A stretch of 64,000 nt of DNA, from assembly GCA_023473665.1 (NCBI GenBank), contig JAMCYM010000002.1:1-64000 (forward strand), given 5' to 3'. This stretch comes from Candidatus Marsarchaeota archaeon. GTDB taxonomy: Archaea; Micrarchaeota; Micrarchaeia; Micrarchaeales; Micrarchaeaceae. How positions within the stretch are numbered: position 1 is the stretch's first letter; each line of letters opens with the position of its first letter. Below, piece by piece: positions 1 to 3,000 of the stretch. A program made the position numbers.

Positions 1-3000
1 GCCTGGGGAGTACGGCCGCAAGGTTGAAACTTAAAGCAATTGGCGGGGGAGCACACAAGGGGTGGATGCTGCGGTTTAATTGAATCCAACGTCGGAAATA
101 TTACCAGAAGCGACGGCAGGGTGAAGGCCAGACTGAAGATCTTGCCTGACGAGCCGAGAGGTAGTGCATGGCGACCGTCAGCTCGTGGTGTGAACTGTCC
201 GGTTAAGTCCGGTAAGTTGACAGAGTGATGCTATGACACAACGATTGAGGTTGACCCCAAACACAAGCTACATGCTTGGAATGTATGTGCAGAGCACTCG
301 TGAACGCATTGGCGTCACGTCAAAGAGAGACGAAGTTATAGAGAAGTTCGTGAAACTCTCGATGGATGAGTTCGGCGTAGAGCCGAACAAGATCCTTTTC
401 GAGGAGCAGGCGCAGGGAACTAGCGCGTTCTTCTACAACTCGAAGCTCAAGAGGCGTTTCGACAAGGCGCTGGAAAGAAGGGATAAGCTCTTCAAGTACG
501 GGAACGAGTACTCAGGCAGCTACATAGCCGGCATGTTCGATGTCAGCGGCGGCAAGGACAGGTACGGCCTGTATTTTGGCAGGCTTGAGCCCGTCGACGC
601 ACTGATACTCGAGAAGCTTGGGATACACACAACAGGCAGTGCGCGCGTGCGGGTCGCAAACCCGAGCGCGCTCGTGACGCTTATACGCGGTCACAGCCTA
701 ATCGTTGCGAGCATTATTCGTTGACCCGGTAACGAGCGAGACCTTCGCCAACAGTTGCAACCTTGGCAGAGATGCCGGGGGCACTCTGTTGGGACCGCCT
801 CTGTTTAAAGAGGAGGAAGGAGAGGGCGACGATACGTCAGTATGCTCTGAATCTTCTGGGCTACACGCGGCATACAAAGGTCGGTACAATGAGATGCAAC
901 GTCGAAAGGCGAAGCAAATCCCCTAAAACCGGCCTAAGTTCGGATTGAGGGTTGAAACTCACCCTCATGAAGCTGGAATCCCTAGTAATCGCATGTCACT
1001 ATCGTGCGGTGAATCTGTCCCCGCTCCTTGCACACACCGCCTACCAACTCACCCAAGTGGGGTCTTAGTGAGGCAGCGACTCTGTCGCTTTCGAACTAAG
1101 GTTCCGCGAGGAGGGGTAAGGTATAACAAGGTATCCGTAGGGGAACCTGCGGATAGATCACCTCAAAAATAATGTGTGCAAAAGCAGGCATTTCGGTACC
1201 TGCATTAATCCTCAAGACTGCGTTTTTCGCTTCCCAGCGTGAGCGCTGCGAAACCTAACGCTCTGCGCATCATATTAATATATTGAATGCGCTAGTCAAG
1301 CGTGGTAAGATGGCCAAGGTACATGAAGGCGGGCAGACGGTCCTTGTTGTAATAGCATTCCTCATCGCGATGGTCGCAATAGTATACGCGCTGGCCGTGC
1401 TCCAGAACGGGATAGGAACGCACGCGAAGGCGCGCATCATAACTGTTGGTGCGACTGGTTACGCCTCCGCGTATCCAGGCGAAGCCGATATATTCCTGCT
1501 TGTCAACGGAACTGGTGCGAGCACACAAGCTGCTGTGCAAAACATGTCAACGACCATGGCCGCCCTGAACAATACGCTGCAGCCGTACATATCCAGAAAT
1601 GTCAGCAACATGAAGACCATTTCATATGCGGTCAGCAAGCCGGTGAACAGCACGCTCTACGTGGCTAGTGAGGGGCTTGAGGTGACAGTGCCGGGAATTG
1701 CCAATGCGACATCAGCGCTGCTCGCCTCAACTTCTATGGCCAACGTGTACGTAAGTGGCGTGCAGGCCGCGCTTACGCCAGCCCAGACCTCGGTGCTCAG
1801 GGTCGAAGCCGTGCAGCTGGCGCTGCAGAACGCCACAGCGCAGGCATTGGCCGTGTCTAAGAGCATATCGTTGCAGAACGTGAGCATAAGCGGCTTTTAC
1901 ATACACCCGTTTGCCGAGCTTACCGGGGCGGAACTTGCCGCCGGCGCCGCGCCCTCGAGCATCAACTCGCTGTTCTACGGAGGCCTTGTGGGCGTCACGG
2001 TGAGCGTCAGTGCGCAGTTCGCCTATAGCTAAGCGCAGCACGTGGATCCCGGATGGGTGCGCGCCCGCGGCCAGCAACCGGCCCGCCTGCGCTCCCCACA
2101 GAATCTTTTTAAACCTTCACAGCGAATACCAGCTGTCCTTTTTGATTCGGGGATAAAATGAGTTTCTACATATATACCCTAGCAGCCGGAGTAGCCGCGC
2201 TGCTGTTCTCGCTGTTTGCGGCGTACTTCACGCTCAGGCAGCCCGAAGGCACTGCAAAGATGCGCGAGATATCTATGGCGATACGCGCTGGCTCGAAAGC
2301 CTACCTCAACAGGCAGCTCAAGACCATAGCCACGTTCGGCGTCATACTCGCTATACTGTTCTACTTCATACCACACGGCGGCGAGATTGATATCGCGTTC
2401 GCTACCGGTGCAATCGCATCTTACCTGACGGCCTACATAGGCATGAACGTGGCAGTGCGCGCCAACGTGCGCACGGCCAAGAGCGCCGAGAAAGGCGTGA
2501 AGCACGCTTTCAGCCTCGCGGTGATTGGCGGCTCGGTAACGGGCTTCGTTGCCGTGGGCCTCGGCCTCATAAGCATATCGCTGCTTCTCCTTTACCTAAC
2601 GCTTTCGAAGGTCGCCATATTGATAGGATTCGGCTTCGGGGCCTCGCTCATCTCGCTGTTTGCAAGGGTCGGCGGCGGCATATACACCAAGGCTGCGGAC
2701 GTGGGCGCTGATCTTGTAGGCAAGACTGAGCTCAACCTGCCTGAGGACGATCCTAGGAATCCAGCAGTCATTGCGGACAACGTGGGCGACAACGTGGGCG
2801 ACTGCGCCGGAATGAGCGCAGACGTATTCGAGAGCTACGCGGTGACGCTCGTTGCAGCATTGCTCATAGCGAACAGCATCAAGAGCGTGACAACCTCCAT
2901 GTTTTCGTATCCATTGCTCATTGCCGGCGTCGGCATAGTCGGCAGCCTTATCGCGATGGTGCTCGTAAAGTCTTTCGCCAAGCCTGTCAGAGCGCTCTAC

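Follow-up and report, generated by a model that had tools for sequence, protein, structure and literature searches.

Here we show that a LAGLIDADG-fold protein encoded within an intron of the 16S rRNA gene has very probably been domesticated in the archaeal phylum Micrarchaeota, passing from a selfish gene to a host gene (we put the probability of this reading at about 0.9). The reading draws on a dead active site, purifying selection on copies of the gene that have left the intron, vertical descent, repeated exits from the intron, and a sister family with an intact active site and patchy occurrence. A first-pass annotation of the same DNA had proposed such a domestication for a single order; the proposal is strongly supported here, and over a wider range than was claimed. 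The data also suggest a role in rRNA maturation, and we give roughly even odds that the protein is a chaperone of the 16S rRNA precursor, for which RNA binding is predicted.

Results

A bulge-helix-bulge intron in the 16S rRNA gene

The window, that is, the whole stretch of 64,000 nt that was analysed, begins inside an archaeal 16S rRNA gene with 517 extra bases (a 518-nt stretch where the Rfam model has 1 nt). Contig C2 and the window share 127 nt, within the 16S gene, where C2 ends and the window begins. In this genome the 16S gene is unlinked from the 23S gene (C2:89327-92183), and the end of the window's own contig, C3, matches the beginning of C2 in reverse complement. The features of the region are as follows, the last four being side observations in the window.

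1..214, + strand: 3' part of 16S rRNA exon 1 (the remaining exon 1 is at the end of contig C2)
209..221, + strand: 5' strand of the splice motif (central helix 209-212, bulge 213-215, inner helix 216-221)
215..731, + strand: bulge-helix-bulge intron, 517 nt, between positions 1040 and 1041 of Rfam model RF01959
223..229, + strand: Shine-Dalgarno-like word preceding the start codon; pairs with the ORF end in the terminal stem of the intron
233..724, + strand: ORF of 163 aa, two-motif LAGLIDADG fold; fills the intron, single copy in the genome
720..732, + strand: 3' strand of the splice motif (inner helix 720-725, central helix 726-729, bulge 730-732)
732..1166, + strand: 16S rRNA exon 2, by Rfam comparison
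1193..1221, + strand: 3' strand of the 16S processing stem, complementary to the 5' leader on C2 (read by eye)
1283-2032, + strand: SIMPL-domain protein
2158-4140, + strand: H+-pyrophosphatase
4168-5967, - strand: short alanyl-tRNA synthetase
5991-6863, - strand: Exo5-like nuclease

The minimum-energy fold of positions 205-740 (z -4.8) places the splice cuts at 214/215 and 731/732, with a 4-bp helix between two 3-nt bulges at the exon-intron junctions, and the stop codon of the ORF falls in inner helix 720-725. The intron with its ORF was thus correctly recognized in the earlier annotation, its length of 510 nt was not: the range 216-725 omits one copy of a 7-mer, CCGGTAA, that is repeated at both intron ends (209 and 726). 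We take the site to correspond to E. coli position ~1101/1102, 8 nt 3' of the hairpin loop position usually numbered 1093. The four bases of the central helix pair completely in 49 of 50 intron-bearing loci from 11 families, and the varying bases beside the cuts fix the same splice register across all 50; a truncated intronic locus brings the families with the gene at this site to 12.

Bases 209-212 of the central helix double as the 3' strand of a hairpin of the mature 16S rRNA, which we take to be helix 35. Across 49 junction models the splice helix has a median pairing probability of 0.64 versus 0.35 for the mature hairpin; in the model of this genome's junction the values are ~0 and ~1.0, respectively.

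Comparison of the 16S genes gave no feature at the site that correlates with presence of the gene, and a base change before the splice site that would track it was considered and rejected. Some intron-less alleles (L105, L128, L224, L175, L184) have an A at the base preceding the site, and A is also common there at the 3' end of introns; this may record precise deletion between the short terminal repeats.

An I-DmoI-like fold with a dead active site

The ORF, in single copy as first annotated, yields a confident predicted structure (pLDDT 95.9), and the I-DmoI fold already proposed for it is borne out by the best Foldseek matches, which are to I-DmoI (E 1.7e-6, TM 0.66-0.68). Structural comparison gives Z 14.1 for I-DmoI (rmsd 3.0 over 148 residues) and Z 13.3 for WhiA, and intein endonucleases are also among the matches. 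Two alpha-beta domains pack via two LAGLIDADG helices in the manner of the two-motif monomeric enzymes, and the entire 163 aa lies within this fold in the model; neither a helix-turn-helix nor any other added domain was found.

Sequence libraries give the family no name. The window protein has a weak Pfam match (E 0.14) and a best PDB match of E 0.098; seven further members have no LAGLIDADG match in Pfam, and 70 members gave no real match in NCBIfam. In the Atlas, three clusters labelled hypothetical rank first, followed by LAGLIDADG_3, and a profile search over 1.84 billion representatives returned 142 matches, with the sister family described below ranking beneath the family itself. Named homologs put the organism in Micrarchaeota.

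The loss of the catalytic acid from both motifs, claimed earlier from fewer homologs, holds in the larger set: the catalytic columns are acidic (D/E) in 2 and 4 of 161 homologs versus 15 of 15 in the sister family, whose invariant Asp positions are occupied here by Ser21 and Ser105. In the available part of Taylor and Stoddard 2012 (PMC3384342), these acidic residues are described as essential in I-DmoI and absent from WhiA. Judged from its sequence, the intron protein has probably lost the ability to cut. Residues that are conserved in the family include K4, K6, K53, Y68-K74 and F87-N91.

An intact and patchy sister family

The nearest relatives of the dead family, in both search directions, are proteins of Pfam LAGLIDADG_3 (P0120, P0122, P0134, P0178). 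The two profiles align over 150 columns (E 6e-17), and the best outside match of the sister profile is a protein named Anstonellales. The sisters retain both catalytic Asp residues invariantly (15/15), are longer (~200 aa) and more basic, and reside in introns that interrupt the 16S gene exactly here or one base further on. Their distribution is patchy, with strong matches in 5 of 201 Aenigmarchaeota and 2 of 401 Micrarchaeota genomes; the catalytically dead family is absent from the 201 Aenigmarchaeota genomes searched, where only sisters were found. Given the sisters' 16S sites and patchiness, the simplest reading of these sequences is that the dead family derives from an intronic, active element.

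Sister-type introns one base from the site were seen at L280 (G179:C1:1106-1726), in a genome of the gene-less clade described below, and at L293 (G290:C88:13806-14330), where the frame is broken near its start; G290 additionally has a free dead gene. Many Micrarchaeota 16S genes outside the order hold several more insertions (L099, L101, L122, L131, L143, L145, L167), and some further insertions carry ordinary LAGLIDADG_3 genes (G233).

Distribution across the phylum

A match was found in 297 of 401 Micrarchaeota genomes, four of them only via long intein-like frames, so that ~293 carry the gene, with hardly any exception as a single copy. Within the order, 95 of 121 genomes match, with 96 matches in total and nearly always one copy; the single-copy occurrence reported for the order therefore stands, with a range that is the phylum rather than the order. 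Absences within the order mostly accompany an unassembled 16S gene, as 23 of the 26 order genomes without the gene also have no 16S match; it is absent from G055, G090 and G096, which have intact intron-less 16S genes and are 83-90% complete. The unpublished genomes G070 and G025 are counted in the tallies, and no conclusion depends on them. A second match in G307 was discarded as a scaffolding artefact across an N gap. The two copies in G048 go with two different 16S genes, and that genome may be a mixed bin; the 16S gene of G210 is identical to that of G121 and is likely misbinned.

Families f9 (76/76 genomes), f4 (30/30) and f13 (16/17) hold the gene at the rate of a core gene. For the phylum as a whole, the earlier term core gene is too strong. 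Seven families (f10, f11, f15, f17, f18, f22 and f26) have no ortholog even by a wider profile and account for 80 of the 108 phylum genomes without one; the gene is also absent from 5 of 7 f16 genomes. The 16S genes of the gene-less families form one clade (24 rows, support 100). Its members contain other 16S insertions and a splicing endonuclease of the same long type yet no gene, and in this clade the gene is thus dispensable.

Repeated exits from the intron

The 96 order matches divide into 34 in the intron, 47 downstream of the 16S gene and 15 elsewhere or cut by contig ends (12 of 20 unclear loci were extended for this tally). The free-standing copies reported earlier are confirmed: the 47 downstream copies are on the same strand as the 16S gene, 105 nt to 4.4 kb away, and the 16S site is intact in 35 of these loci. 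The state of the gene is uniform inside each genus, G048 excepted. One copy had been described as adjoining S13-S4-S11 with no rRNA nearby; the S11-S4 copy that we find in G011, which may differ from the locus then meant, does have an intron-less 16S gene 1.8 kb upstream, outside the 1.5-kb flank.

Outside the order, an intronic copy at this site was found in 17 of the 68 loci cut, seven copies are downstream of a 16S gene within the cut, and one is near a 16S gene on the other strand; the remainder have no rRNA within 1.5-2.5 kb. For three of the latter, G127, G132 and (uncut) G145, coordinates put a 16S gene 0.8-3.5 kb upstream of the gene. The site is intact in every one of the 30 16S genes extracted from genomes of other families with free copies. 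In f9 and f13 the gene has lost its linkage to the 16S gene, a linkage that may reflect only how the gene was copied.

Signals around the gene differ between the two settings. A TATA-like word at -36..-22 precedes 30 of 107 free copies, versus 7 of 107 in a control window and 2 of 50 intronic copies, while a Shine-Dalgarno-like word is present at 35 of 50 intronic loci versus 15 of 107 free loci. Relocated downstream copies lie past the 16S processing stem, and for that reason a route out by which the excised intron inserts at the 16S processing site was rejected. Remnants of intron ends beside free copies were not found above shuffles. In G101 a gene fragment, joined to a second copy of the 16S trailer, sits between the 16S gene and the gene, as local duplication would be expected to leave it. 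The same locus (L260, G101:C3, ~442800-443700) also has a small gene pair that by eye resembles an antitoxin and a PIN-domain toxin.

In f9 and f13 a conserved helical protein of ~155 aa is encoded directly upstream of the free gene (L157:2956-3417, - strand, and homologs); in f16 and f14 its gene is found 2.5-5 kb away from that of the splicing endonuclease. It has no Pfam or Atlas match, and as an obligate partner it was rejected, being present in 16 of 60 genomes and absent from the order.

Selection and descent

Median dN/dS is 0.15 both in 14 intronic pairs and in 11 free pairs (pairs share members), and frames are intact in all 96 order matches except in G067 (shortened, 143 aa) and where contig edges cut. 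The gene follows host ancestry by vertical descent: the protein tree requires 24 changes for 23 family labels (minimum 22, shuffled 110), and protein distances follow 16S distances with Spearman coefficients of 0.64 (91 genomes) and 0.75 (43 intronic). If the intron was never regained, the 16S tree implies at least 9 exits from it, or 12 without collapsing weak branches. The trees are FastTree or quick IQ-TREE reconstructions, those of the protein from 163-169 columns, with many weak branches and a root on a long branch. The patchy occurrence, horizontal spread and ties to an insertion site that mark active homing endonucleases are not features of this family.

Splicing in RNA and the probable message for translation

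No public run contained as much as half of the window's own words, so RNA contigs of four runs were compared with a relative, G069, instead. In run X22 a 1339-nt contig without differences to G069 skips exactly its 519-nt intron, and run X3 has the same exon joint, so that precise removal is seen in two studies. Runs X1 and X2 gave no coverage of the G069 intron, an outcome that carries no information on splicing. A 549-nt contig from X3 covers the intron alone, with 28 letters unplaced; since 549 = 519 + 30 is the length expected of a circle if contigs were built from 31-mers, the excised intron may be circular in this relative.

In 26 of 50 intronic loci the ORF lacks a stop inside the intron and runs through the 3' splice site. 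Of these read-through ORFs, 24 of 26 stop at most 8 codons into exon 2, versus such an exon 2 stop in 13 of the 24 loci whose ORF already ends within the intron (p 0.003, with kin not independent; by lineage label 14/16 versus 9/18). With half of the intronic ORFs stopping in exon 2, splicing would destroy the protein's own message, and we infer that the unspliced precursor is the message for the protein, as it is for maturases. Translation from the circle is not favoured, as 5 of 26 read-through introns, when read as circles, give no stop at all. These five (L021, L022, L050, L088 and L095, of 522, 522, 492, 489 and 501 nt), if circularized, are candidates for rolling-circle translation, or a sign that the circles go untranslated.

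A splicing endonuclease was found in 60 of 60 genomes searched, nearly always as a ~390-aa frame, with or without the gene. A difference in endonuclease type between gene-bearing and gene-less groups was sought in these 60 genomes and rejected. Family f16 has, besides the long protein, a second short one (174-188 aa) with a strong match to the tRNA splicing endonuclease domain (G143:C21:29688, G168:C1:226596, G310:C3:17752, G248:C2:98842), and weaker short paralogs occur in f9 and f13.

Discussion

A proposed route from selfish gene to host factor

As a host factor, the protein would bind the precursor 16S RNA and help it to fold around the splice site. The route would start from elements such as the intact sisters, which are seen patchily at the same or the next 16S position. 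One such element would have become fixed early in the phylum and lost both aspartates. Its intron would be precisely removed, as observed in the relative, and its protein made from the unspliced precursor. According to the computed folds, the splice motif and the mature hairpin would compete for the same four bases, which would give a chaperone its task. A helper that manages this fold switch, and is later needed for assembly of the region, would be kept after the intron is lost. The dependence of the host would in this way have widened past this intron, so that the intron could be lost only after the gene had been copied out. Copying out was likely by local duplication, which would leave free copies close behind the 16S gene, often preceded by a TATA box of their own, to drift away later. 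In its fullest form the proposal is tentative, and we hold it as somewhat short of an even bet: the protein would be a needed small-subunit assembly factor, encoded in an intron of its target rRNA and translated from the precursor, with loss of the intron awaiting, at least 9 times, the copying out of the gene.

Alternative explanations

The most serious competitor, which we regard as unlikely while giving it real weight, is that the protein was domesticated as a DNA-binding or protein-scaffold regulator resembling the N-terminal domain of WhiA, its nearness to the 16S gene being history only. The WhiA fold is as close to the model as that of I-DmoI (Z 13.3 versus 14.1), net charge remains positive (median +7 to +9), conservation extends to the basic residues at positions 71 and 74, which follow strand 4, and free copies acquire TATA boxes and leave the rRNA locus. 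Such a regulator would, however, be a bare domain with neither helix-turn-helix nor any further domain; moreover, the residues invariant in the strand region of the sisters (columns 54, 58, 59, 64 and 66) have not been retained and the charge is half of theirs (+17), both of which argue against a conserved DNA target.

A dead enzyme might instead act as a guard, binding the intact homing site and shielding the single 16S gene from active relatives. Sisters of the active type do exist at the same or next site, one of them in G179 of the gene-less clade, but we consider the idea improbable: G290 was invaded by a sister-type intron despite its free dead gene, invasions number 1 in ~293 genomes with the gene versus 1 in ~108 without, and intronic alleles have no intact site to protect yet show equal dN/dS.

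It is more improbable still that the protein remains mobile or keeps nuclease activity through an unusual active site. The position of D103, an aspartate nearer the start of motif 2, is acidic in 160 of 161 homologs, but both metal-binding positions are lost, descent is vertical, and free copies adjoin intact sites that an active enzyme would cut.

We see hardly any room for a protein that serves only as a maturase for its own intron, or as an obligate subunit of the splicing endonuclease. A maturase origin would agree with the read-through into exon 2 and with the competing folds; a maturase as sole role is refuted by the free copies, since the gene is retained under equal selection where the site is intron-less. 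It is kept in G014, G020 and G111 (single contigs) and in G158 with uninterrupted 16S and 23S genes (the 16S of G111 being seen from position 143, and the four 23S genes measuring 2829-2888 nt). An obligate subunit is at odds with a splicing endonuclease that occurs regardless of the gene in all 60 genomes. The role in rRNA splicing suggested by the first-pass annotation is, in the narrow sense, unsupported: single-contig genomes with uninterrupted 16S and 23S genes retain the protein, and the gene-less clade has the long endonuclease and further 16S insertions as well.

That the gene is a decaying passenger of a fixed intron, as a dead active site and long residence in one site might suggest, is just as hard to credit and is refuted by selection on the free copies, together with intact frames, retention after at least 9 intron losses, and the lack of any empty or remnant intron at the site in 29 readable 16S genes of gene-less genomes.

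Relation to known systems

The element itself has probably been seen before: the portion of Sakai et al. 2022 available to us (PMC8784108) describes a 522-bp insertion in the 16S genes of Micrarchaeota ARM-1 and ARMAN-2, encoding a hypothetical protein 25% like UNLARM2_0643, for which no homology was found and whose splicing and function were left uncertain. By size and description, that insertion is most likely the same element. It is placed there at E. coli 1093, and the splice motif found here lies 8 nt further 3'. To what that portion contains, the present work adds the fold, the dead site, the splice motif, evidence of splicing, the phylum-wide range and the free-standing copies. An excerpt of PMC5498576 also notes 16S introns in ARMAN-type archaea. 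In the literature searched, mostly open-access and with the original ARMAN papers outside it, we found no account of how widely the family occurs, of its dead site or of its escape from the intron.

With I-DmoI and other archaeal rRNA-intron endonucleases, as far as the excerpts consulted go, the protein shares the two-motif monomeric fold and residence in a bulge-helix-bulge rRNA intron. Those enzymes are mobile and patchy and decay to remnants or hairpins, whereas the Micrarchaeota protein is dead, vertically inherited and conserved, and outlives its intron. Jay and Inskeep 2015 (PMC4496867), in the part accessible to us, treat rRNA-intron loci of Thermoproteales with LAGLIDADG endonucleases and list 13 loci; if the E. 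coli numbering used here is right, the Micrarchaeota site is absent from these. Mobile or decaying intron endonucleases, WhiA and maturases are covered in passages of PMC4496867, PMC6125680, PMC3984707 and PMC11270868. The sister family resembles the dead one in its 16S position, the same or the next, and differs in its intact Asp pair, length of ~200 aa and patchiness.

WhiA/DUF199, presented in the excerpt of PMC3384342 as a domesticated I-DmoI-like domain without acidic residues, is similar in being a dead LAGLIDADG domain that a large lineage has retained. WhiA occurs in bacteria, carries a fused helix-turn-helix and parted from any intron long ago, whereas the Micrarchaeota protein is a bare archaeal domain of separate, 16S-intron origin that is often still intronic. 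LAGLIDADG maturases (bI3, I-AniI and the protein of a Thermotoga 23S intron), to judge from parts of PMC3384342 and PMC3984707, are likewise intron-encoded proteins turned to RNA, sometimes with loss of cutting. Known maturases fold their own group I ribozyme and are confined to their own intron; the Micrarchaeota intron, in contrast, is spliced by protein, and its gene outlives it, being kept alongside intron-less 16S and 23S genes.

Significance

To our knowledge, other domesticated LAGLIDADG proteins (WhiA, HO, maturases) have been caught either once domestication was complete or while still tied to an intron. In Micrarchaeota all three forms still exist, namely the active type of the ancestor, the dead gene in its intron and the gene that has escaped, the last many times independently, and the path from selfish element to host gene can therefore be traced and tested. 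If true, which we judge possible rather than probable, every stage of a domestication would be preserved within one phylum: the active invader, the dead gene in its intron and the free housekeeping gene. The findings speak to the open remark in the consulted portion of the ARM-1 paper on what the insertion protein is and whether the insertion is spliced, and cultured Micrarchaeota with 16S insertions, mentioned in the excerpts of PMC8784108 and PMC5498576, make the hypothesis testable. For the organisms themselves, whose genomes are very small, they add a conserved gene specific to the lineage, and may point to a new step of archaeal ribosome assembly.
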